Below, piece after piece: positions 566 through 10,250 of a DNA stretch of 64,000 nucleotides (position 1 is the first letter of the stretch; the number at the start of each line of letters is the position of its first letter). Under the pieces are notes generated by a model, which did not search any database, was not told the DNA's origin, and worked only from the letters and a program-made list of their open reading frames with translations. Origin of the DNA: Escherichia phage IME267; sequence record NC_070983.1; one strand, 5' to 3'. A program made the translations under genes and the position numbers.

Positions 566-600
566 GGTTGATCACTCTCGTTTATCAGAGGAGAACAAAT

Positions 601-849
601 ATGTTTCTAGACTTTTTATCAGAGGTACTTCCCTACTTCCGCACTGAGAAATGTGCATTTGTATTTGATGAAGGGGAGGAGTCAATGACTTGTTTGGGTA
701 GATTAGTAGACCTAGACGATGATGAAGATTTTGATGCTACGATGGACATTAGTTCATTGGGCTGGTTGTACATGAGATGCTTTGTAAGTTACAAGGCTGA
801 AACGTTTAAGGATTATCGCTATAGCGCTGAAGGAGAGAATGATGAATAA
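601..849 (+). CDS. Small acidic hypothetical protein
   Basis: ATG at 601 with GAGGAG 7 nt upstream; track start 568 is TTG; Asp/Glu-rich. Confidence 0.4.
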   Translation: MFLDFLSEVLPYFRTEKCAFVFDEGEESMTCLGRLVDLDDDEDFDATMDISSLGWLYMRCFVSYKAETFKDYRYSAEGENDE

Positions 850-1498
850 CATGACAGGAACTAATACACTGAATGCAATCTATGAGAACATGGGATGTAA
901 AGGCGAGGTTGTTTACAATGGTGGCTCACTCCGTCCTTTATCAGAGGACATTCTCTATCTGAATCGTGTTCATGAAACTACTGGAGGTCAGTCCCGAGTT
1001 GAGATGGCAAAACAATTGGCTCATGGTTCTGTGTACGGTTATGCTCCTTCAACCCGTGAAATATGGGAAGGTTTGATTCCTCGTACAGAAGCTAAAGATG
1101 TGAAAGACTATTTCACTGTAGCAAAAGAAGTTAAACGTAAGTGTCCATCCAATTTAGAAGTTGTTCCGTATGTAGCTGACAAACATGCACACCTACCGGA
1201 CTATGCCCGTGAGATGATTGAGATGATAGAAGAGGCTGAGTATGAAGCTCTGAATAACTATCTCAACTCGAAAGATCAATGGTCACGTAATGTAGTAATT
1301 GATGAAGAAGGTAATGAAGTTGTAACGTGGGTGCATGTTAGTGAACAAGCTCTGGACCCCGAGCTTGAAGAATACAAAAAATTTTTGGCGTCCTCTTCTT
1401 TTGAGGTAGAGAATGACAAATCTATTCCAGTTGGCTGGGAAGGTGAAACTGTAGCTCTCCAGACTTTGTTCAACCTACACGTAGGTGATGTAGATTAA
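839..1498 (+). CDS. Hypothetical protein (219 aa)
   Basis: Long ORF with GAAGGAG upstream; start could be ATG 839 or 842. Confidence 0.5.
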   Translation: MMNNMTGTNTLNAIYENMGCKGEVVYNGGSLRPLSEDILYLNRVHETTGGQSRVEMAKQLAHGSVYGYAPSTREIWEGLIPRTEAKDVKDYFTVAKEVKRKCPSNLEVVPYVADKHAHLPDYAREMIEMIEEAEYEALNNYLNSKDQWSRNVVIDEEGNEVVTWVHVSEQALDPELEEYKKFLASSSFEVENDKSIPVGWEGETVALQTLFNLHVGDVD

Positions 1499-1509
1499 TA
1501 AAAGGTGTT

Positions 1510-1534
1510 GCCTCCTCTCGTGGGAGGCTTTTTG
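1510..1534 (+). terminator. Putative rho-independent terminator
   Basis: gcctcc-tctcgtg-ggaggc hairpin followed by TTTTT just after the stop at 1498. Confidence 0.5.
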
Positions 1535-1563
1535 TTATAACGATAATGTAGAAGGAGTATAAG

Positions 1564-2031
1564 ATGTTTGGAGAAAAAGGAGAACTCACGCCTGCACAGG
1601 TAGCTGAGATTACAGGAAGACTGCCCGGAGTAACGGAAGAACTTGAATCCAAGGGCATGGAACCAAGCACAGGGAAGTTCACTAAAGGTAATAAGTTTGG
1701 ACGACCCAGAGGTAGTAGAGGTAAATTGACACAGCTCATGCTCGATCGTGTTGCTGCTAGTCATCTGTCTCCTGATGAAGTGTTGATTCAGATTTATGAA
1801 GATCCAAGTATTCCACCCGATCTTAGATTCAAGGCTGCAAGTAAAGTCGCTGATCTGGTATATCCTAAGGCAGCTTCTGTTGAGGTTAAGATTGAGGAAG
1901 AGAATGTAATCAATGAAGAATCACTGAACGCACAGATTCGAGACTTCTTGACTGGTGCACTAAAAGTGGATGTGCTACCTCCAGAGGACTCTGAGGACGC
2001 TGAAAAGGGGGAGGAAGCGGACGAGAGTTAA
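1564..2031 (+). CDS. Putative terminase small subunit
   Basis: Sits immediately upstream of the large terminase; basic G-rich N-terminal segment, acidic C-terminus; assignment by position. Confidence 0.35.
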   Translation: MFGEKGELTPAQVAEITGRLPGVTEELESKGMEPSTGKFTKGNKFGRPRGSRGKLTQLMLDRVAASHLSPDEVLIQIYEDPSIPPDLRFKAASKVADLVYPKAASVEVKIEEENVINEESLNAQIRDFLTGALKVDVLPPEDSEDAEKGEEADES

Positions 2032-2097
2032 TAGGAATAAAGGGGAGGGTTCTTTTCGCGAGGGATCTCTCCCTTTCTTATTTTATTGGAGGAATAT

Positions 2098-3639
2098 ATG
2101 TCGTTAGATAAAGAAATCTATGAAGCTCTAACTGGAGACAAGTTGAGTATAGAGGAAAAGAAAGCTTTGCTCAATATGTTAAAAGAAAGGGACCAGTGGA
2201 GAAAATATAACAAGATGTTGGCTTTTAAAGCTTACGACTTTCAGAAGAAATTCTATGCAGCAGGGTTGAAGCATCGCTTTCGATTCCTGTGCGCAGCTAA
2301 CCGTGTTGGTAAATCTTACAGCGAGGCATACGAGTTTGCTTGTCATGTCACAGGTCGCTATCCAACTTGGTGGACAGGTTACAGATTTAATCGACCCATA
2401 TTGGCTTGGGCAGTAGGGATTACAGGGGACTCTACAAGAAAGGTATTGCAAAAGGAGTTGTTTGGAACACCTATCGGAAAGGATATGAATCTAATAGGAA
2501 CAGGTGTTATTCCTCGTGATGCTATCGTATTGGACACGATAGAACGAGATGGGAACAAATTACAGATTGTACAAATTAAGCATCAAAACGCGAGAGGCGA
2601 GTTTGACGGTTTAAGTACATTAGAGTTCCGTTCTACCCAACAGGGTGAACATACATTGATGGGTGCTACAGTTGATTATATTTGGCTGGACGAAGAAGAT
2701 CCATATGAATCTATGGCAATCTTCTCTCAGTGCGTAACACGTACACTTACAACTAAAGGTTTAGTTACTATTACAGCTACACCAGAGAACGGTTTAACAG
2801 AGCTGGTGGATAAGTTTATGAAAGGTGAAGGAGATGAGAACACAGGTTCTCTGTATTTCCAGAATGCTTCTTGGTGGGATGCTCATGTAGATTTAGGTGG
2901 ACATATCACTGACCAAGATATTAAAGACATGACTGAAGGTATTCCAACATGGCAGTTAGAGATGCGTTCAAAAGGTATGCCGTTGCTTGGTTCTGGTTTG
3001 ATTTATGATGTATCAGATGACATGATTAAGTGTGATCCCTTTGAGATACCTGATACGTGGAAACGTGTTTGTGCTATTGATATTGGTATTGATCACCCGA
3101 CAGCCGCTGTTTGGACAGCATATGATGCTAACACTGATACGATTTATGTTTATGACTGCTATAAAGAAGGTGGGTTTACTCCGGTGTACCATGCACCAGC
3201 TATTAATGGTCGTGGTCAGTGGATTCCAGTTATTCTTCCTCACGATGCCGATAATATTGAGAAGGGAAGTGGTTCGTCTGTTGCTCAATTCTATAAGAAT
3301 GCAGGGGTTAATGTACAGAGTGAGACCTTCTACAACAAGATTGGAATGGATGGTAAGAAGAACTTCTTTGTAGAGCCGGGAATTACTGATATTCGTGAAC
3401 GTATGATGTCAGGTCGTTTTAAAATCTTTAACATTGCTTCGTGTGCTAAACTCTTTGAAGAGAAAGCTCGCTATCACCGTAAGGTTGGCAAGATTGTTAA
3501 GGAACATGATGACTTGATGGATGCTATGCGATATTCAGCTTGTTCTGTAACACATCGTGGACGTAGTAAGCATGATGCTAGTTATGGTAGTTCATCGCTT
3601 TATCAAGACAATATTAACAGATGGAATCAGACCTACTAA
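2098..3639 (+). CDS. terL: Terminase large subunit
   Basis: Walker A-like ANRVGKS and Walker B-like IWLDEE; ATG 2098 with GGAGG upstream (track start 2086 is TTG). Confidence 0.85.
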   Translation: MSLDKEIYEALTGDKLSIEEKKALLNMLKERDQWRKYNKMLAFKAYDFQKKFYAAGLKHRFRFLCAANRVGKSYSEAYEFACHVTGRYPTWWTGYRFNRPILAWAVGITGDSTRKVLQKELFGTPIGKDMNLIGTGVIPRDAIVLDTIERDGNKLQIVQIKHQNARGEFDGLSTLEFRSTQQGEHTLMGATVDYIWLDEEDPYESMAIFSQCVTRTLTTKGLVTITATPENGLTELVDKFMKGEGDENTGSLYFQNASWWDAHVDLGGHITDQDIKDMTEGIPTWQLEMRSKGMPLLGSGLIYDVSDDMIKCDPFEIPDTWKRVCAIDIGIDHPTAAVWTAYDANTDTIYVYDCYKEGGFTPVYHAPAINGRGQWIPVILPHDADNIEKGSGSSVAQFYKNAGVNVQSETFYNKIGMDGKKNFFVEPGITDIRERMMSGRFKIFNIASCAKLFEEKARYHRKVGKIVKEHDDLMDAMRYSACSVTHRGRSKHDASYGSSSLYQDNINRWNQTY

Positions 3640-3704
3640 AAATAGGGGAGGCTTTGTCCTCCCTTTAGTAGTTCCTTCCAAGCTATCACCGAGGGAGAGA
3701 TTAG

Positions 3705-5948
3705 ATGGCTAAGAAGAAATTTAGTGAAGATGTTTTGGATGAATTACGCGTTGACCTTCAACGTCGATTCAATTATGCTCAAGGTTATGTAGACTTAGCT
3801 GTAAAAGGCTATGCTCGTGAGGCTTGGGAATACTTCTATGGGAACCTTCCTGCTCCAGTTACTGCTGGTAGCTCTAGTTGGGTAGACCGTACGGTATGGG
3901 AATCAGTGAATGGTACGCTCCAAGATATCATTAATGTGTTCTGTTCTGGTGACGAAGCGGTAACTTTCGTAGCCGATAACCAAGAAGATAGTGATGCTGC
4001 TGACGTAGCCACTAAACTTGTCAACCAAATTTTGTTACGTGATAATCCGGGATATAATATTATCTCTTCAGCGGCACAAGAGTGTCTGGTTACACGTAAC
4101 TCTTTTATTAAATATTATTGGGATGAACAAACTTCTACCCAAACAGAAGAAGCAGAGGGTGTTCCTCCGGAAGCTTTGGCTGCATATGTCCAAGGTTTAG
4201 AAGCTGGTGGGCTTCAAGATTTAGAAATCTTTACCACTGACAACGAAGATGGTACAGTGGATGTTAAAGTAACTTACAAACAAACAGTAAAACGCGTTAA
4301 AGTAGAATATGTTCCTTCAGAACAGGTTTTTGTTGACGAACATGCTACCTCTTTTGCAGATGCTCAGTATTTCTGTCATCGCACACGTAAATCTAAAGAA
4401 GATCTGGTTGCTATGGGCTTCCCTAAAGATGAAATTGAAGCTTTTAATGACTGGACTGATACAATGGACACCACTCAATCTACTGTTGCATGGTCACGTA
4501 CTGACTGGCGTCAGGATATAGATTCAGATATCGGTGTAGACACTGATGATATCGCTTCTATGGTTTGGGTTTACGAGCATTACATCCGTACTGGTGTACT
4601 GGATAAGAATAAAGAAGCAAAACTCTATCAAGTTATTCAAGCAGGTGAGCATATTCTCAGTTGTGAAGAAGTAACTAGCATTCCTTTTGTAACATTCTGC
4701 CCTTATCCTATTCCGGGTTCATTCTATGGACAATCTGTTTATGATATCACCAAAGATATTCAGGATTTGCGTACCGCTTTGGTTCGTGGTTATATCGATA
4801 ACGTAAACAATGCTAACTATGGTCGTTATAAGGCTCTTGTAGGTGCTTATGACCGTCGTTCTCTACTGGATAACCGTCCGGGTGGTGTAGTAGAAATGGA
4901 GCGTCAGGATGCGATTGATCTCTTCCCTTACCACAATCTACCTCAGGGTATTGATGGCTTACTAGGAATGTCAGATGAGTTGAAAGAGACTCGTACTGGT
5001 GTTACTAAGCTTGGTATGGGCATTAACCCTGATGTGTTTAAGAATGATAACGCATATGCAACTGTTGGATTGATGATGAATGCTGCTCAGAACCGTCTCC
5101 GTATGGTCTGTCGTAACATTGCTCACAACGGTATGGTTGAATTGATGCGTGGTATTTATAATTTAGTCCGAGAAAATGGTGAGGTTCCTTTACAAGTACA
5201 AACCCCTCGTGGTATGGTTCAGGTTCATCCTAAACAACTGCCTGCTCGTCACAATCTACAAGTTGTTGTAGCTATCTCTCCTAGCGAGAAATCAGAACGT
5301 GCCCAGAAACTAATCAGCCTGAAGCAATTGATTGCTGCTGATGCTCAGTTAGCACCTCTGTTTACTCTGGAGCAAGATCGTTATATGACTGCACAGATCT
5401 TCGAGTTGATGGGAATTAAAGACACTCACAAATACTTAATGCCTCTGGAACAGTATCAACCGCCAGAACCTTCTCCGATGGAAATCCTCCAGCTTGAGAT
5501 GACTAAAGCACAGGTTGAGAACGTACAGGCTTCTTCTCAGAAGATGATTGCTGATGCATTCGACCAGCGTGAACGTACTACGTTTGAGCAGCAGAAAGCT
5601 GCGGATGAGTTCAGCTTGCGTCAAGAAGAACTGCAATTTAAGCAAGAGAATGCTGCTGATCAGATGACTTTGGAGAATCGTAAAGAAGACAACAGTGCTA
5701 CACTTGAACAAGCTAAGCATAAGTTGGCTCTGCTCCAGCAACAGGTCCGTCAGTACGAATCTGTACTTAAAGAATTGCAGATGACTCTTAACCATCAGGT
5801 TGATGTTGAGAAAGTTGCAAATCAGGCTAAAATTCAAGATAAGACTTTGGAACTCCAAAAGAAAGAAGCAAATGAAACTAAGAAAGAACAGCAAAGTTCA
5901 ATCAAAGATTCACGGATTCCTAACCGTCGTCTTGGTAGTAGAAAATAA
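3705..5948 (+). CDS. Portal protein
   Basis: 747 aa ORF directly after terminase with coiled-coil-like charged C-terminal third; strong RBS. Confidence 0.7.
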   Translation: MAKKKFSEDVLDELRVDLQRRFNYAQGYVDLAVKGYAREAWEYFYGNLPAPVTAGSSSWVDRTVWESVNGTLQDIINVFCSGDEAVTFVADNQEDSDAADVATKLVNQILLRDNPGYNIISSAAQECLVTRNSFIKYYWDEQTSTQTEEAEGVPPEALAAYVQGLEAGGLQDLEIFTTDNEDGTVDVKVTYKQTVKRVKVEYVPSEQVFVDEHATSFADAQYFCHRTRKSKEDLVAMGFPKDEIEAFNDWTDTMDTTQSTVAWSRTDWRQDIDSDIGVDTDDIASMVWVYEHYIRTGVLDKNKEAKLYQVIQAGEHILSCEEVTSIPFVTFCPYPIPGSFYGQSVYDITKDIQDLRTALVRGYIDNVNNANYGRYKALVGAYDRRSLLDNRPGGVVEMERQDAIDLFPYHNLPQGIDGLLGMSDELKETRTGVTKLGMGINPDVFKNDNAYATVGLMMNAAQNRLRMVCRNIAHNGMVELMRGIYNLVRENGEVPLQVQTPRGMVQVHPKQLPARHNLQVVVAISPSEKSERAQKLISLKQLIAADAQLAPLFTLEQDRYMTAQIFELMGIKDTHKYLMPLEQYQPPEPSPMEILQLEMTKAQVENVQASSQKMIADAFDQRERTTFEQQKAADEFSLRQEELQFKQENAADQMTLENRKEDNSATLEQAKHKLALLQQQVRQYESVLKELQMTLNHQVDVEKVANQAKIQDKTLELQKKEANETKKEQQSSIKDSRIPNRRLGSRK

Positions 5949-5957
5949 GGATACTGA

Positions 5958-6194
5958 ATGAATACAAGACAGCAATTCAATAAAGAGCACGCCGCCGCTT
6001 TGGCGGCTCTCAATCACAACGGCATTCTTGACGCAGCATTAGAGGCATTAAAAGAAACCCTCATGAGAGATATCGTATTAACCGAGGCTCATGAGAATAA
6101 GAAACGCGAAGAGTGTTATCAAAAGTATAAAATGGTTGGTAGCTTAAAAGAGGTCATAAAAGCTGCTATCAATAATGCAGGAGATATTTCCTAA
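5958..6194 (+). CDS. Small hypothetical protein between portal and scaffold
   Basis: 78 aa ORF with AAGGA upstream; stop overlaps next start. Confidence 0.45.
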   Translation: MNTRQQFNKEHAAALAALNHNGILDAALEALKETLMRDIVLTEAHENKKREECYQKYKMVGSLKEVIKAAINNAGDIS

Positions 6195-7276
6195 TGGCAA
6201 ATGATTATATTGACCCGAACGATTTTAAATCTTTCCTCCAACTAGACGACTTAAAAGGCTCCTTCAAAGAAGAGCTTAGTCAATTAGAATCAGAACGTGA
6301 ACCAGAAGTGAACATCGATGATGAATTCCCAGAACAGTCTGAGACTTTTGATCTTGATGCTTCCGACCTTCTCGGTGATGACGATACGTTAGCGTTCGAA
6401 GATGAAGATGGTTGGGAAGATCGTGAAGAGGAAGGCGAAGAAGAAGAGGAAGAGTCTGAGTTCTCTGATGAAGAAGATGAAGAAGATGATTCCGGTGAAG
6501 CAGATCACGATGAAGCTGCTAACAGCGACGAAGATGGCGAAGAAGGTGAAGTCTTTGACGTAGATTATGAAACTGTTATCACCCTTCCTGATGGTCGTGA
6601 GATGACTATTGAAGAGTTGTCTAATGGCTATTTGACTGGTGCAGAAATGTCCGAACGTGAGACTACTTTGCAGCGTCATGTTGAAGCTTTTGAAGAACGT
6701 GTTGCTGGCTTGGGGGATGTATTAGAACTAGCTGCCCTAGAAGCAGACCGAGTAATTGAAGATTACAACGGTTTTGATTGGGACAAACTTGCACAAGAAG
6801 ATCCTCAAGCTTATGTAGAAAACAAACGTTTCTTAGAAAAATATACAGCTCGTCGCCAACAGCTTGAACAAGCTCAGCTTAAAATCAAGCAAGAAGCACT
6901 AGCAAAAGAACAACAGCTCTTCCAAGCTAAATGCACTGAGTGTGTAAGCGTACTTAAACGTGAGATTCCTAATTGGGATGACAACTTGTATCAGAACCTG
7001 ATGCAGTATGCAATCGACTTAGGTGCTACAGAAGAAGAAGTGCTGAAAGAGAACCGTCCGTCAATCTTCCTAGCTCTACACAAAGCATACCAGTTTGATA
7101 AAGGTAAGCAGCAGGTGATGGCTAAGATTAAACGTCCCGGCTCTCCACGCAAGGTTGTGAAGTCCGATGCTTCTAAGTCTCGTTCTTCCAATACGCCAGA
7201 CAACGCTAAGGTTGCCAAGGCATTCTCAGAGGGTCGTATTCGTCACGAAGACGCATTTAAGTATCTCGTAGATTAA
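6194..7276 (+). CDS. Putative scaffolding protein
   Basis: Very acidic low-complexity N-terminal half, charged helical C-terminal half, between portal and capsid genes. Confidence 0.6.
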   Translation: MANDYIDPNDFKSFLQLDDLKGSFKEELSQLESEREPEVNIDDEFPEQSETFDLDASDLLGDDDTLAFEDEDGWEDREEEGEEEEEESEFSDEEDEEDDSGEADHDEAANSDEDGEEGEVFDVDYETVITLPDGREMTIEELSNGYLTGAEMSERETTLQRHVEAFEERVAGLGDVLELAALEADRVIEDYNGFDWDKLAQEDPQAYVENKRFLEKYTARRQQLEQAQLKIKQEALAKEQQLFQAKCTECVSVLKREIPNWDDNLYQNLMQYAIDLGATEEEVLKENRPSIFLALHKAYQFDKGKQQVMAKIKRPGSPRKVVKSDASKSRSSNTPDNAKVAKAFSEGRIRHEDAFKYLVD

Positions 7277-7316: not shown

Positions 7317-8372
7317 ATGGCAAATCCAACTTTATTTGTATCTTACGACCAGAATGGTAAAAAACTTTCTTTTGCTAACTGGATTTCTGTCCTGTCTCCG
7401 CAAGACACTCCGTTTGTGTCTATGACTGGTAAAGAGTCTATCAATCAGACCATTTTCAGCTGGCAGACCGATGCTCTGGCGAGCGTAGATGCTAACAACG
7501 CCCACGTCGAAGGCTCTCGTGCTGAAGACGGCGAAATGAAACCTACTGTAATTAAGTCCAACGTTACTCAGATCCTGCGTAAAGTTGTTCGTGTTTCTGA
7601 TACTGCTAACACCACCGCTAACTACGGTCGTGGTCGTGAACTGATGTATCAGCTGGAGAAGAAAGGTAAAGAGATTAAACGTGACCTCGAGAAAATCCTG
7701 CTGTCCGGTCAGGCTCGTACCGATATTCTGGCAGACCAGTATCTGACCAACTCTGCAACTGATCCTGCTGTTGTAGGTCAGAATGATACCTCAGCTGCTC
7801 GTAAGACTGGTGCTTTCCAGTTCCTGTGTGCACACAATGGTGTTGCTGGTGGTGTTGTTAAGAAAGAAGATGGTCCTGCTGACCCGGATACTGGTGCAGT
7901 AACTGTTAAAGTTGCACAGAATGCTTCTAACCCGACTACTAACATCGGTTTTGATGAAGCTGATATCTTTGATATGACTCTGCAATTGTATACCGCTGGT
8001 TCTGAAGCAGACATTATCATGATTAACCCTGCTCACGCTAGTATCTTTGCTAAGCTTCAGGAAAACTCTGTTGGTTCTCGTCAGCGTATCTTTGAGAACA
8101 CCAAACAGTTCATCTATGAAGTTAACAGCATCACTGACCCGCTGGGCCAGAGCTATAAAATCATCGTTAACCGTTGGATGCCTGCTGATGCAGTTTACTT
8201 CTTCCGCAGCTCTGACTGGACTCAGATGGTTCTTCGTGCTCCGAAACGTACTGAACTGGCGAAAGATGGTTCTTACGAGAAATGGATGATCGAAATGGAA
8301 GTTGGTCTGCGTCACCGCAACCCGTATGCCTCCGGCGTTCTGTTCACTGCTGCGGGAAAGGTGGCGGCGTAA
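7317..8372 (+). CDS. Major capsid protein (short form)
   Basis: 351 aa ORF after scaffold with strong RBS; position and size typical of podovirus-type capsid genes. Confidence 0.7.
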   Translation: MANPTLFVSYDQNGKKLSFANWISVLSPQDTPFVSMTGKESINQTIFSWQTDALASVDANNAHVEGSRAEDGEMKPTVIKSNVTQILRKVVRVSDTANTTANYGRGRELMYQLEKKGKEIKRDLEKILLSGQARTDILADQYLTNSATDPAVVGQNDTSAARKTGAFQFLCAHNGVAGGVVKKEDGPADPDTGAVTVKVAQNASNPTTNIGFDEADIFDMTLQLYTAGSEADIIMINPAHASIFAKLQENSVGSRQRIFENTKQFIYEVNSITDPLGQSYKIIVNRWMPADAVYFFRSSDWTQMVLRAPKRTELAKDGSYEKWMIEMEVGLRHRNPYASGVLFTAAGKVAA

Positions 8373-8896
8373 CAGTAGACAGTGTGACTGTTAGCCCTGC
8401 GTCTTTAGCAAGTCTAGAGACAGGGGCTACTCGGCAGTTCACTGCAAGCGCGGAGAAAAGTGATGGTTCTACCGAAACAACTGGCTTTACTTGGTCAGTG
8501 ACAGGAGGTGGTTCTATCACTCAGTCGGGTTTGTATACTGCTCCGAGTGCGTCTCAATCCACTGATGTATCCATTACTGCAACTTTAGAAGGTGTTTCTG
8601 GTACAGCAACCATTTCTGAAATTGTTGCTCCTGCTCCTACTATTGTAGCTAAGGGTCCAATTACGGGTAAAACTGGTGGTTCCTCCACTAATTTCACTAC
8701 CATGTTTACTGTAACTAATTCTGCTGCTGCGGATTACACGTTTGTTGTAACTCCTACAGAAGCTGGTACAGTAAGCGCCGCTGGTGCGTTAACCTTAGAT
8801 GCTGCTGCAAGTGGCGAAGTTACTGTTCAAGCAAGTTTGACAGCTGACCCGTCCATCAATGCAACATGCACTTTTACTGGTGTAACACCTGCTTAA
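7317..8896 (+). CDS. Major capsid protein, long form via predicted -1 frameshift, adding an Ig-like (Big_2-type) C-terminal domain
   Basis: Heptamer G_GGA_AAG at 8354..8360 in capsid frame; the -1 frame stays open to 8896 and encodes an Ig-like repeat. Confidence 0.55.
8354..8360 (+). other. Predicted -1 slippery heptamer GGGAAAG
   Basis: X_XXY_YYZ arrangement in capsid frame, 10 nt before the capsid stop codon. Confidence 0.55.
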
Positions 8897-8904
8897 AAAC
8901 TAGA

Positions 8905-8928
8905 CCCTGCCTTCGGGCGGGGTTTTTT
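8905..8928 (+). terminator. Rho-independent terminator after capsid gene
   Basis: ccctgcc-ttcg-ggcgggg hairpin followed by TTTTTT. Confidence 0.6.
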
Positions 8929-8956
8929 CGTTTTAAGACCTATACAAGCTAGTGTG

Positions 8957-8966
8957 TAATGTATAT
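8957..8966 (+). promoter_or_regulatory. TAATGTATAT motif (possible extended -10 element)
   Basis: Exact 10-mer also at 26424 and 35616; TGn-TATATT arrangement about 30 nt upstream of the 8999 start. Confidence 0.3.
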
Positions 8967-8998: not shown

Positions 8999-9511
8999 AT
9001 GGCAATGCCAGATTTCAGAGGAGCTTTTACATATAACCCAAATACAGGGCATCTTTTCTGGTCTATGAGTAACATATTCAATAAACAGAAAGGTCAACGT
9101 GCTGGATGTATTAATAGTAAGGGATATCGTGTGTTAACCTTCAAGAAGAAATCTTACCTAGAGCATAGAGTCATAGCTGAACTCTTTCTTCCTAAAGTAG
9201 AAGGGAAGGAGTATGTCAACCATAAGAATGGAATAAAAGATGACAACAGGATTGAGAATCTAGAGTGGTGTACTCAACAAGAAAACTGTGTACATGCTTA
9301 TGAAACAAAACTCTCAACACCAAGGAATCTTGAGGATAATCCTAATTCCAAACTTACTAAAGAACAAGTTCTTTTCTGTTTAGAGAACTATAAACCGAGG
9401 GACAGACAGTTCGGAGCTAGAGCTTTAGCTAGGAAGTTTGGAGTCTCTTCAAGCACAATAAGCCTAATAATCAATGGCACAAACTGGAAGGAGGTATCCT
9501 ATGTTGCCTGA
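8999..9511 (+). CDS. HNH homing endonuclease inserted between capsid and tail genes
   Basis: HNH motif region HRVIAELF...VNHKNGIKDDNRIENLEW; own RBS AAGGAGGA. Confidence 0.75.
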   Translation: MAMPDFRGAFTYNPNTGHLFWSMSNIFNKQKGQRAGCINSKGYRVLTFKKKSYLEHRVIAELFLPKVEGKEYVNHKNGIKDDNRIENLEWCTQQENCVHAYETKLSTPRNLEDNPNSKLTKEQVLFCLENYKPRDRQFGARALARKFGVSSSTISLIINGTNWKEVSYVA

Positions 9512-10250
9512 CGTTCAATACCCCATCAATACCTATGGGTGGCTAAAGAAGGCCGTGGCCCTCTGGGCAGATAGGGACGACGATGAATTTGTTAATCAAA
9601 TTCCAAACTTTATTAACTTTGCAGAGAAAGAGATTTATCGTAACTTACGTATTCCTCCTCTGGAAAAAGAAGTGTATTTAGATATTAAAGATGGAGTAGC
9701 TTACATTCCTCCTGATTACTTAGAAGCTCAATGGATGATGAGAGCCAAAGATGGCACAATCTTCCAAGTAACCTCTCCTGAAGAGATTAGCTATCGTAGA
9801 CAGCATGGAACAATTAACCCATCTCACTGGAATAACCAACCTGTCAACTTTGCTCGTTTCGGTAGTCGTTTCATTTTCTACCCTAGCATCGAAGCAGATA
9901 CTCCGTACTACCCTGATGATGGAAGCCCTTTGATTCCAGCAGAAAACTCAGTGATTCTTAGCTATTATGCAGACCCACCGGAATTCCATGAAGATACAGA
10001 TACTAGTACTATTCTTACTATAGCACCAGAACTTCTTCTGTACTTCACCCTACGTCATGCTTGTCTCTTTGTTCAAGATGATAATGGTGTTCAGAAATGG
10101 TCAGCATTAGGAAAAGCTATCCTTGATGAAATGGTAGAACAGAATAAGAAACAAGAGTACTCAGGTTCACCTATCGCAATTCCGAATAACATGACTCGAC
10201 TTCAGAGCAGCCTGCCTGATATTTATGGTATTCGTACTTCTCGTGTATAA
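9501..10250 (+). CDS. Hypothetical virion protein (possible adaptor or tail component)
   Basis: ATG 9501 with GGAGGT upstream, overlapping the HNH stop; track start 9474 is an upstream in-frame ATG. Confidence 0.5.
   Translation: MLPDVQYPINTYGWLKKAVALWADRDDDEFVNQIPNFINFAEKEIYRNLRIPPLEKEVYLDIKDGVAYIPPDYLEAQWMMRAKDGTIFQVTSPEEISYRRQHGTINPSHWNNQPVNFARFGSRFIFYPSIEADTPYYPDDGSPLIPAENSVILSYYADPPEFHEDTDTSTILTIAPELLLYFTLRHACLFVQDDNGVQKWSALGKAILDEMVEQNKKQEYSGSPIAIPNNMTRLQSSLPDIYGIRTSRV

Follow-up and report, generated by a model that had tools for sequence, protein, structure and literature searches.

The window, that is the whole stretch of 64,000 nt analysed, belongs to a Kuravirus-like (phiEco32/SU10/SU7-type) E. 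coli podophage. Its SU7-like genus is Suseptimavirus, whose records list two genes at the locus described here. [quoted passage not shown] The features found are collected in Table 1.

Table 1. Features of the capsid locus, in window coordinates
Feature	Position	Strand	Basis or remark
Major capsid protein gene, 0 frame	7317..8372	+	ORF list; Pfam SU10_MCP, E 2.6e-79
ATG of the mechanical ORF 8282..8896	8282..8284	+	capsid-frame codons AAA TGG (Lys-Trp)
7-bp stem (CUGCUGC / GUGGCGG), heptamer in loop	8347..8367	+	fold
Slippery heptamer G_GGA_AAG, predicted -1 shift site	8354..8360	+	phase by direct sequence reading
-1 frame extension, C-terminal part of the predicted 526-aa fusion	8360..8896	+	open frame; 178 aa + TAA 8894..8896
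Gly-Gly-Gly linker, -1 frame	8360..8368	+	GGS or GSGG in relatives' translations
0-frame stop TAA of the short capsid protein	8370..8372	+	9 nt past heptamer
Ig-like domain 1, Big_2 type, extension residues 6-83	8375..8608	+	Pfam PF02368
GTG, annotated start of a separate 'Ig-like domain protein' (SU7_9, phi32_12)	8384..8386	+	GenBank annotations
Hairpin within Big_2 coding sequence (extended form 8386..8439)	8393..8428	+	fold
Ig-like domain 2, extension residues about 91-178	8630..8893	+	divergent beta-sandwich module
Intrinsic terminator, 10-bp stem, 6 G-C pairs, T run	8902..8935	+	terminator scan

The product of the capsid gene alone is an HK97-fold, SU10-type capsid protein of 351 aa (38.6 kDa), 99.7–100% identical to the capsid proteins of SU7 and 101114UKE3; in the syntenic region around the gene Pfam SU10_MCP, SU10_portal and SU10_adaptor are all matched. 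The locus is orthologous to the phiEco32 gp11-12 type, with which it shares the capsid gene, the position of the heptamer and the extension.

At its 3' end the capsid gene reads, in the 0 frame, GCG GGA AAG GTG GCG GCG TAA, and G_GGA_AAG is the only X_XXY_YYZ motif found in phase within the gene. This heptamer had been placed, by the sequence-only reading, in the capsid frame and near its stop: the phase is correct, and the gap to the stop is 9 nt. Since GGGAAAG is not enriched in the window (5 copies, with 7.2 expected), the motif by itself proves nothing. The heptamer is invariant in 15 loci, with capsid identities of 79–99%: 14 of them are Kuravirus-like (window included), while the last, L029, is a metagenomic relative at 79% identity. 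It also recurs in Privateer and vB_CsaP_009, at 58% capsid identity. Over the 14 Kuravirus-like loci both GGGAAAG and the upstream TTCACTGCTGC are unchanged, while the bases immediately downstream vary. For efficiency in E. coli, G_GG.A_AA.G ranks within the top three heptamers (PMC4066793).

The -1 frame had been described as open up to 8896, for about 180 residues. The count is 178, entered at 8360 and starting GGGVTVDSVTVSPASL; the junction, ...FTAAGK/GGGVTVD, is translated exactly as previously given, and the capsid-Ig fusion, expected to be of roughly 526 residues, is computed as 526 aa and 55.5 kDa, to be compared with 351 aa and 38.6 kDa for the short form. Across the frame junction the predicted fusion contains the stretch FTAAGKGGGVTVD, and one of its tryptic peptides, GGGVTVDSVTVSPASLASLETGATR, would be impossible from a product started at GTG 8384.

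At this base composition, the chance of a -1 frame staying open for 178 codons is about 2e-5; inside the capsid gene, the longest open run in alternative frames is 88 codons, and 38 in the frame of the extension. When the extension is compared with diverged relatives, changes fall mostly at third positions and dN/dS is 0.21–0.26: it is under purifying selection. PHROG 13745, 'Ig domain containing protein', matches it with an E value of 1e-80. In all relatives besides SU10 the extension is open for 178–372 codons, and in two of them (L007, L019) a 3-nt insertion preserves the frame relation. The forms taken by the linker, together with dN/dS and third-position changes, show the -1 frame to be coding from the heptamer on.

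The extension had been credited with one Ig-like domain. Its Ig-like nature and its Big_2-type pattern are borne out, but the domains are two, not one. The first scores 24.8 bits against Big_2 (PF02368; cut-off 22.8), and is a member of that family; its region is modelled by AlphaFold2 with pLDDT 84–89. The second reaches 17.2 bits, below the same cut-off of 22.8, and in its AlphaFold2 model, of moderate confidence (pLDDT 57–84), is all-beta and Ig-like: it is better described as an Ig-like module of divergent type than as a Big_2 member. It weakly matches, by sequence, the C-terminal domain of T5 pb6 (residues 377–457; E 0.24). The same module occurs in several copies in the 892-aa fusion of YF01; in P0020 it continues a capsid homologue in frame, and P0001 has it repeated. 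Sequence searches of the extension against PDB returned weak matches only (E 0.09–0.25); to assign a fold, a structure model was needed. The AlphaFold2 model of the extension features two beta-sandwich domains; in PDB the structure that it matches best is the Big_2 tandem of LigA (E 1.9e-6), and further structural matches include RB49 Hoc and the Ig domain of T5 pb6.

Mirzaei et al. (PMC4281155) had already remarked, in SU10, on the stem which carries the heptamer in its loop; among relatives, 5–7 of its 7 pairs are kept in all variants of the 3' arm. The hairpin within the Big_2 coding sequence starts 33 nt past the heptamer, or 25 nt in its extended form, and is too distant for a classical stimulator. 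In L006 and L007 two of its stem pairs are changed on both sides and still paired, while two apical pairs are broken; with only five distinct sequences, covariation is suggestive, not significant. Of classical stimulators none was found: no hairpin or pseudoknot begins 5–9 nt past the heptamer, and no SD-like element lies about 10 nt ahead of it. Structure prediction on 8361..8440, proposed as a check by the sequence-only reading, gave an 80-nt fold of ordinary stability (z = -1.24), in which no canonical stimulator was found. A 151-nt fold, which takes in the stem around the heptamer along with coding-region pairings, has z = -3.1. As no classical stimulator was found, frameshift efficiency could be low; a stimulatory element is not, however, a strict requirement, and none is known to be needed at the lambda G/GT frameshift.

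The terminator hairpin earlier read at 8905..8928 is real, with a stem scanned at 8902..8925, then a T run. It follows the extension, not the capsid stop, and closes a transcription unit made of capsid gene plus extension; in the records of SU10 and Privateer terminators are annotated at the same place. Rfam produced sub-threshold matches only, all on the terminator. The search for an internal sigma-70 promoter, serving the extension, gave 4 matches, where the background is 3.7.

The capsid gene and the overlapping -1 ORF very probably constitute one translational unit, connected by a -1 frameshift. Phase and conservation of the heptamer, the lack of a conserved start, an Ig-like extension under selection and the position of the terminator all support the frameshift predicted from the bare sequence. 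Most ribosomes would stop at TAA 8370, producing the 351-aa HK97-fold capsid protein of 38.6 kDa. A minority would slip back by one base on G_GGA_AAG, with the P-site tRNA-Gly re-pairing from GGA to GGG, and the A-site tRNA-Lys from AAG to AAA. The slipped ribosomes would continue in the -1 frame up to 8896, and their product would consist of capsid residues 1–348, the Gly3 linker, the Big_2 domain and the second Ig-like domain. This long form may be expected to co-assemble as a minor subunit of the prolate head, with both Ig-like domains facing outward, where they would probably let the virion adhere weakly to carbohydrates or to other material on surfaces. Published work on relatives suggests that the fusion is made and present in virions, while slippage rate, surface location and function of the long form are features that we only infer. 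Slippage at the level of transcription was also considered, and was rejected by reasoning, because GGGAAA has no long homopolymer run.

In most GenBank records the Ig-like ORF is annotated as an independent gene, and gp10 is handled as a separate protein in the SU10 structure paper (PMC9509320). Such a gene, using its own start (GTG 8384 or ATG 8282), would encode a free protein of ~17–21 kDa, either capsid-binding or not; this is very improbable, in view of the behavior of both starts. GTG 8384 is probably not a real one: its anti-SD duplex, at -1.7 kcal/mol, equals background, while neighbouring genes range from -6 to -11.4, and the codon is replaced by GTA or ATA in four relatives (L006, L007, L008, L019), where the next in-frame starts are found 99–138 nt in, within the Big_2 domain. 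For EP335, annotators had to pick a start 84 nt past the capsid stop. ATG 8282, in turn, is incidental, arising from conserved Lys-Trp codons of the capsid frame: between it and the ORF a stop codon intervenes in phiEco32, SU10, MN05, EP335 and relatives further away, and the -1 frame of relatives opens only downstream of its position, at NGSW or DGSW. The heptamer is constant, while the candidate starts are variable. The earlier suspicion, that the ORF 8282..8896 is probably not an independent gene, agrees with all this. Moreover, a number of proteins (P0063, P0061, P0062, P0020, SE131 gp028 and a 410-aa protein of BUCT695) are in-frame fusions, in which an SU10-type capsid domain continues, from the same point past ...NPFASGVL, into Big_2 domains or the domain-2 module; frameshift is favoured over an independent gene because relatives carry the same capsid-Ig junction in frame.

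A free Ig protein could also be coupled to capsid translation, by termination at TAA 8370 and reinitiation at GTG 8384, 12 nt downstream. The distance is short, and it is general knowledge that couplings of this sort require little or no SD. Yet in the four relatives which have lost the GTG the heptamer is retained and the ORF is complete; the stop directly adjoins the heptamer in Privateer and vB_CsaP_009, and the annotation of the Privateer long form as fused to capsid is based on mass spectrometry. Reinitiation is accordingly given even less credit than an independent gene. The same low credit goes to an extension which is decaying or effectively silent, with the heptamer a conserved by-product of the capsid C-terminal Ala-Gly-Lys codons, slippage negligible and the long form playing no part. 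Besides the failure to find a stimulatory structure near the heptamer, the case for it comes from SU10, which has apparently lost the extension and is viable: its head, by cryo-EM, is without extra density, and no long band is seen in gels (PMC9509320, PMC9965538). SU10, on the other hand, is no fair test of the long form, because its deposited sequence contains a 1-nt insertion, by which the extension ends after 11 residues. In its mass-spectrometry table, coverage is 50.3% of about 526 aa for '9+10' and 78.1% of 352 aa for capsid alone; as '9+10' covers no more residues than capsid alone, peptides from the Ig part are not shown by the table itself. Silence is also hard to reconcile with the length of the open frames and the dN/dS values reported above, and with a conservation of the slippery site exceeding amino-acid requirement: Gly and Lys may be coded by non-slippery codons, but GGA AAG is constant. 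Among more distant relatives, A_AAG is retained in all those with a -1 ORF, and is absent at this position where there is no -1 ORF.

Relatives at 59–74% identity feature long -1 Ig-domain ORFs behind G_GUA_AAG, ACA_AAG or UCA_AAG, sites where the P-site tRNA cannot re-pair, while lineages without A_AAG have a second capsid gene, arisen by duplication, that runs in frame into Ig domains. Such non-canonical sites occur in Aeromonas phage LAh_8 and in the metagenomic relatives L010-L013, L025, L026 and L028. For the wider SU10-type family, the recoding signal might be just A_AAG, 0–4 codons before the stop, rather than the heptamer, a suggestion to which we give almost, but not quite, as much belief as doubt. 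If it were true, frameshifting and gene duplication would be interchangeable evolutionary routes to minority Ig-bearing subunits. The non-canonical sites would then need further stimulators, for which a GC hairpin, 6 nt downstream in L010-L012, and the stem with the slip site in its loop are candidates.

The practical value of the frameshift reading lies in annotation. In SU7, 101114UKE3, MLP3, phiEco32 and the majority of the 124 phage genomes that match, the Ig-like ORF stands as a gene of its own, named 'Ig-like domain protein' or 'hypothetical protein' and begun at an arbitrarily chosen GTG; among the records examined, the fusion is annotated only in the Privateer RefSeq record, where the long capsid form is a join, and in YF01, as a fused protein. 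In the paper on the SU7 genome, neither the capsid protein nor Ig domains nor frameshifting is mentioned. With the long form, some of the roughly 715 capsid subunits would each carry two Ig-like domains, and this, in a group of coliphages which are therapeutic candidates, may affect surface or mucus adherence and immunogenicity. It would also offer a natural display site. In principle, none of these points is new.

Ig-like domains on phage structural proteins, often added through frameshifts, were reportedly surveyed by Fraser et al. in 2006. In phage Ig decorations, such as T4/RB49 Hoc and T5 pb6, Big_2-type and related domains are appended to structural proteins, as here; the role proposed for them is to adhere weakly to surfaces (cited in PMC9965538). 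Hoc is a separate capsid-binding protein, whereas here the domains are predicted to be covalently carried by a fraction of the capsid subunits. The 10A/10B system of T7 (and T3) is similar in that a podophage HK97-fold capsid gene undergoes a -1 shift a few codons before its stop, producing a minor long subunit, at a rate of about 10% in T7 (quoted in PMC9965538). It differs in the slippery sequence, GTG GTT TTC, in the 53-aa extension and in the capsid protein family.

The heptamer had also been identified with that of lambda G/GT: an identical G_GGA_AAG is indeed found in lambda G, in the same phase, 15 nt before the stop, compared with 9 nt here, and the two sites share the 11-mer CTGCGGGAAAG. 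The flanking stem of the window is missing in lambda, where 2 of the 7 pairs form. Lambda G/GT, which frameshifts at a rate of about 3.5% (quoted in PMC9965538), concerns a tail chaperone, with unrelated proteins and purpose, while virion decoration is predicted here; the gene in the window being a podophage major capsid protein, the locus is not of the lambda G/GT type, and only the heptamer is in common.

The capsid/Ig frameshift of this phage group is already published, and is not new. For phiEco32, Savalia is said to have described, in 2008, a slippage on GGGAAAG that links capsid protein and Ig-like ORF. Slippage has been described for SU10, in 2014, and phiEco32 (PMC4281155), and a frameshift for the whole Kuravirus-like group, YF01 included, in the 2023 YF01 paper (PMC9965538). 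For Privateer two gel bands were reported in 2021, with the long form detected by mass spectrometry (PMC7881722). Privateer is a Proteus phage of the Grimontviridae, where an SU10-type capsid gene with a C-terminal G_GGA_AAG is followed by a -1 Ig-like extension of ~170 aa, then by a terminator; it differs in that capsid identity is 58%, the stop comes directly after the heptamer, and the first extension domain is of another Ig type. PhiEco32 gp11/gp12, SU10 CDS9/CDS10 and YF01 gp8 (Gordonclarkvirinae) are, in contrast, the orthologous gene and site. In YF01 the extension is much longer, with domain 2 in repeated copies; the 892-aa fusion deposited there at NCBI aligns with 99% of the predicted one, and 83% of the residues are identical. 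The Kuravirus-like systems have in common with the window the heptamer, a Gly-rich linker, Big_2 with domain 2 behind it, and the place of the terminator: from these the window shows no essential difference.

The 3' end of the capsid gene reads, in the capsid frame, ...GCT GCG GGA AAG GTG GCG GCG TAA: the heptamer GGGAAAG, in the phase G_GGA_AAG, lies at 8354..8360, and the stop codon at 8370..8372. It is the only in-phase X_XXY_YYZ motif of the gene; in the window, GGGAAAG is not enriched (5 copies, 7.2 expected). From 8360, the -1 frame reads GGGVTVDSVTVSPASL... and continues for 178 residues, up to the TAA at 8894..8896; at the present base composition, an alternative frame would stay open for 178 codons by chance with a probability of about 2e-5. 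The short form of the capsid protein has 351 aa (38.6 kDa), while the predicted fusion has 526 aa (55.5 kDa). The factual statements of the sequence-only reading are all correct, to within a few bases: heptamer, phase and stop are as it had placed them, the -1 frame, described as open to 8896 for about 180 residues, is indeed so, and the terminator hairpin, given as 8905..8928, was recovered by scanning only a few bases away.

Over 7317..8930, the DNA shares 99.5% identity with Escherichia phage vB_EcoP_SU7 (Gordonclarkvirinae, Suseptimavirus) and 93–99% with dozens of prolate podophages of the Kuravirus-like (phiEco32/SU10-type) group. A homing-type HNH_3 endonuclease gene, with a strong Shine-Dalgarno (SD) sequence (-11.4 kcal/mol), is found between the terminator of the capsid extension and the adaptor gene, and overlaps the adaptor ORF start by 38 nt. 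SU7 does not have it at the corresponding position; it is present in only 9 phage records (MLP3, PAS59, TH38, XT18, XT32 and others), which fits the expectation for a mobile insertion. The 9-mer TAATGTATA occurs 5 times in the window, against 0.5 expected; one copy is just past the capsid terminator, 34 nt upstream of the HNH start. This 9-mer probably corresponds to the promoter element to which the sigma factor encoded by phiEco32 responds (Pavlova et al. 2012).

Coordinates of features in the window and, where a phage or locus (L-number) is named, in capsid loci of relatives
Feature	Position	Details
Portal, SU10-type	3705..5948	
Scaffolding protein	6194..7276	
Major capsid protein, SU10-type	7317..8372	Pfam SU10_MCP, E 2.6e-79
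7-bp stem, heptamer in loop	8347..8353 with 8361..8367	
Hairpin within Big_2 coding sequence	8393..8428 (extended 8386..8439)	33 nt from slip site; stable
Intrinsic terminator	8902..8925	stem plus T run, 3' of extension
HNH endonuclease	8999..9511	
Adaptor, SU10-type	9474..10250	
TAATGTATA copies	8957..8965; 26424; 35545; 35616; 42582	35545 and 42582 on minus strand
Tandem capsid paralogues, SE131 (L021)	1485..4261	
Tandem capsid paralogues, BUCT695 (L035)	2501..4781	
Tandem capsid paralogues, GAP52 (L023)	2492..4629	
Tandem capsid paralogues, APT65 (L024)	569..3427	
Tandem capsid paralogues, L014		
Candidate non-canonical slip site, Aeromonas phage LAh_8 (L022) and L010–L013		G_GUA_AAG
Candidate non-canonical slip site, L025		GUA_AAG
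Candidate non-canonical slip site, L026		ACA_AAG
Candidate non-canonical slip site, L028		UCA_AAG

The extension had been described as a single Ig-like domain of the Big_2 type. A Big_2 domain is found at extension residues 6–83, with a Pfam score (24.8 bits) barely over the gathering score of 22.8; the count of one does not hold, since the structural model shows two Ig-like domains. Residues ~91–178 score 17.2 bits, below threshold, and are weakly similar to the C-terminal domain (residues 377–457) of the T5 tail tube protein pb6 (E 0.24). The AlphaFold2 model, obtained from an input alignment of 13 sequences (mean pLDDT 76.6), features two all-beta domains, with pLDDT of 84–89 in the first and 57–84 in the second. 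The PDB entry that it matches best is Leptospira LigA, over a tandem Big_2 segment (E 1.9e-6); the Ig domain of T5 pb6 and RB49 Hoc are also among the matches. On the basis of model and matches, the extension is counted as two predicted Ig-like domains.

Natural in-frame fusions show that Ig-like domains at exactly this point of the capsid fold are a functional arrangement. In three homologous proteins (P0063, P0061, P0062) an SU10-type capsid domain is followed, directly after ...RHRNPFASGVL, by Big_2 domains in ordinary in-frame continuity, while in a fourth (P0020) the in-frame join after the same residues is to the same module as domain 2 here. The search with the predicted fusion also found a deposited 892-aa 'major capsid protein' of YF01 (99% query cover, 83% identity). 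Second capsid paralogues of Salmonella phage SE131 (gp028, 586 aa) and Aeromonas phage BUCT695 (410 aa) are in-frame Ig fusions as well.

The alternative, an independent downstream gene with its own start, is what the majority of public records annotate: in SU7, phiEco32, MN05 and ShigP1 a 170-aa 'Ig-like domain protein' begins at the GTG equivalent to window 8384. Other records leave the region unannotated. Yet this GTG has no SD sequence: its anti-SD duplex (-1.7 kcal/mol) is at the level of the regional background (-1.74), unlike those of the portal, scaffold, capsid, HNH and fibre genes (-6 to -11.4 kcal/mol). Nor is it conserved: L006, L007, L008 and EP335, four relatives with the heptamer and the whole ORF, have GTA or ATA in its place, and their next in-frame start is 99–138 nt further downstream, within the Big_2 domain. 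The ATG at 8282, from which a mechanically called ORF (8282..8896) starts, is a by-product of the capsid-frame codons AAA TGG (Lys-Trp), and is cut off from the heptamer by a stop codon in phiEco32, SU10, MN05, EP335 and more distant relatives. The proposal that 8282..8896 is not an independent gene is thus upheld.

Throughout 14 Kuravirus-like loci the heptamer and the preceding 11 bases are invariant; the bases directly after it vary, encoding in the -1 frame a Gly/Ser linker in every case (GGG, GGS or GSGG). Two relatives have 3 nt inserted, which keeps the frame relation. Against relatives at dS 0.6–1.2, the extension has a dN/dS of 0.21–0.26, with third-position changes dominant; in the same comparison the capsid body has 0.08–0.12. 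Judged from substitution patterns, the extension is genuinely protein-coding. The frameshift interpretation is strongly supported, and very probably correct.

The capsid/Ig frameshift is an already described property of the Kuravirus-like group. Corban et al. 2021 (PMC7881722) reported this signal in Privateer, together with two gel bands and mass-spectrometric detection of the long form, and the Privateer RefSeq record includes the frameshift join; an extended isoform of ~500–550 aa, gaining an Ig-like domain, is described in PMC9965538. The mass-spectrometry table of SU10 reports forms of 38.5 and 55.4 kDa (Mirzaei et al., PMC4281155). The coverage of '9+10' (50.3% of ~526 aa) amounts to no more residues than that of the capsid (78.1% of 352 aa), so that the table alone does not prove that Ig-part peptides were seen. 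SU10 itself has been described as having a premature -1-frame stop and as showing no extended form by cryo-EM or SDS-PAGE (PMC9965538, PMC9509320). The truncation is confirmed in the deposited SU10 sequence (KM044272; locus L017, ~3563..3582), which has one extra base compared with all relatives, and whose extension ends after 11 residues. With the extra base, CAGTAGACAGTGTGACTG becomes a perfect palindrome, CAGTAGACACTGTCTACTG; the extension may have been truly lost, or the base may be an artefact of assembly at a hairpin. In the SU7 genome paper the capsid frameshift goes unmentioned.

In the proposed mechanism, most ribosomes would terminate at 8370, while a minority would slip by -1 on G_GGA_AAG, with tandem re-pairing of tRNA-Gly and tRNA-Lys, and would then add the linker plus both Ig-like domains. 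Co-assembly of the long with the short form is expected. G_GG.A_AA.G is one of the three best heptamers, and tRNA-Lys with a UUU anticodon is notoriously shifty on AAG (PMC4066793). An SU10-type head contains ~715 capsid subunits (PMC9509320), and the frameshift rates quoted in PMC9965538, from lambda to T7, are 3.5–10%. Combining the two values, each head would be expected to carry a few tens of Ig-bearing subunits. By analogy with the T7 10B C-terminus, which is used for phage display, the Ig-like domains may be surface-exposed, with an adherence function. Phage Ig-like domains in general provide a second analogy for both properties (Fraser et al. 2006, cited by PMC9965538).

Folding of the site region revealed no hairpin or pseudoknot starting 5–9 nt past the heptamer; no SD-like element was found ~10 nt upstream of it, and no Rfam match at the slip site. 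The stem holding the heptamer in its loop, already noted for SU10 (Mirzaei et al., PMC4281155), has an invariant 5' arm, while the 3'-arm variants GUGGUGG, GCGGCGG, GCAGUGG, GUAGUGG and GCGGGAG keep 5–7 of the 7 pairs. A different stem is possible around the heptamer in Privateer, vB_CsaP_009 and L029, a metagenomic locus. In the hairpin within the Big_2 coding sequence, two pairs are changed on both sides and still paired in relatives (U:A to G:C, U:G to G:C; only five distinct sequences), even where amino acids are altered. Neither stem is placed like a classical stimulator.

L029 (79% capsid identity) keeps G_GGA_AAG, with an extension of ~440 aa; its post-heptamer bases (CAGGAGGAGCAG, 3557..3571) contain a perfect SD-like AGGAGG 3 nt past the slip site, which may simply reflect the linker Gly-Gly codons. 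In Privateer and vB_CsaP_009 (58% identity) a TAA directly follows G_GGA_AAG, and the -1 ORF has ~170 aa. Other relatives (59–74% capsid identity) have no canonical heptamer: all feature an A plus an AAG Lys codon, one codon before the stop, and a -1 ORF of 109–323 codons encoding Ig-like domains. GenBank lists these ORFs as separate genes (LAh_8 gp070, for example, as 'tail protein'). In L010–L012 a short GC hairpin (GCGCCC-CUAC-GGGCGU) is found 6 nt downstream of the site. No other tetramer approaches A_AA.G in slipperiness in E. coli, although A_AA.G requires a stimulator (PMC4066793). The capsid gene of L015 (56% identity) ends with GTA AAA AAG GCG TAA (4421..4433), a dnaX-type A_AAA_AAG; its -1 extension has 42 residues only.

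A_AAG is absent at the corresponding position in relatives without a -1 ORF (GAP52, ECO319P1, APT65, Vp_R1, BUCT695), several of which have tandem capsid paralogues instead. Two to four such paralogues are present in several relatives (SE131, BUCT695, GAP52, APT65, L014); in SE131 and BUCT695 the downstream one carries the in-frame Ig-like domains. Since tandem-paralogue lineages have no frameshift signal, capsid duplication appears to be another way of obtaining a minor capsid subunit with Ig-like domains.

This pattern of A_AAG-only sites and paralogues, unlike the rest of the analysis, was not found stated in the publications consulted. That distant relatives may reach the same end by A_AAG-only sites or capsid gene duplication is a useful comparative point; the remaining use is an annotation correction in SU7-like genomes. 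As for known systems, the sequence-only reading had named the same heptamer in lambda, rightly: gene G carries it in the same phase as the capsid gene described here, with the stop 15 nt after it, though around the lambda heptamer no stem is possible.
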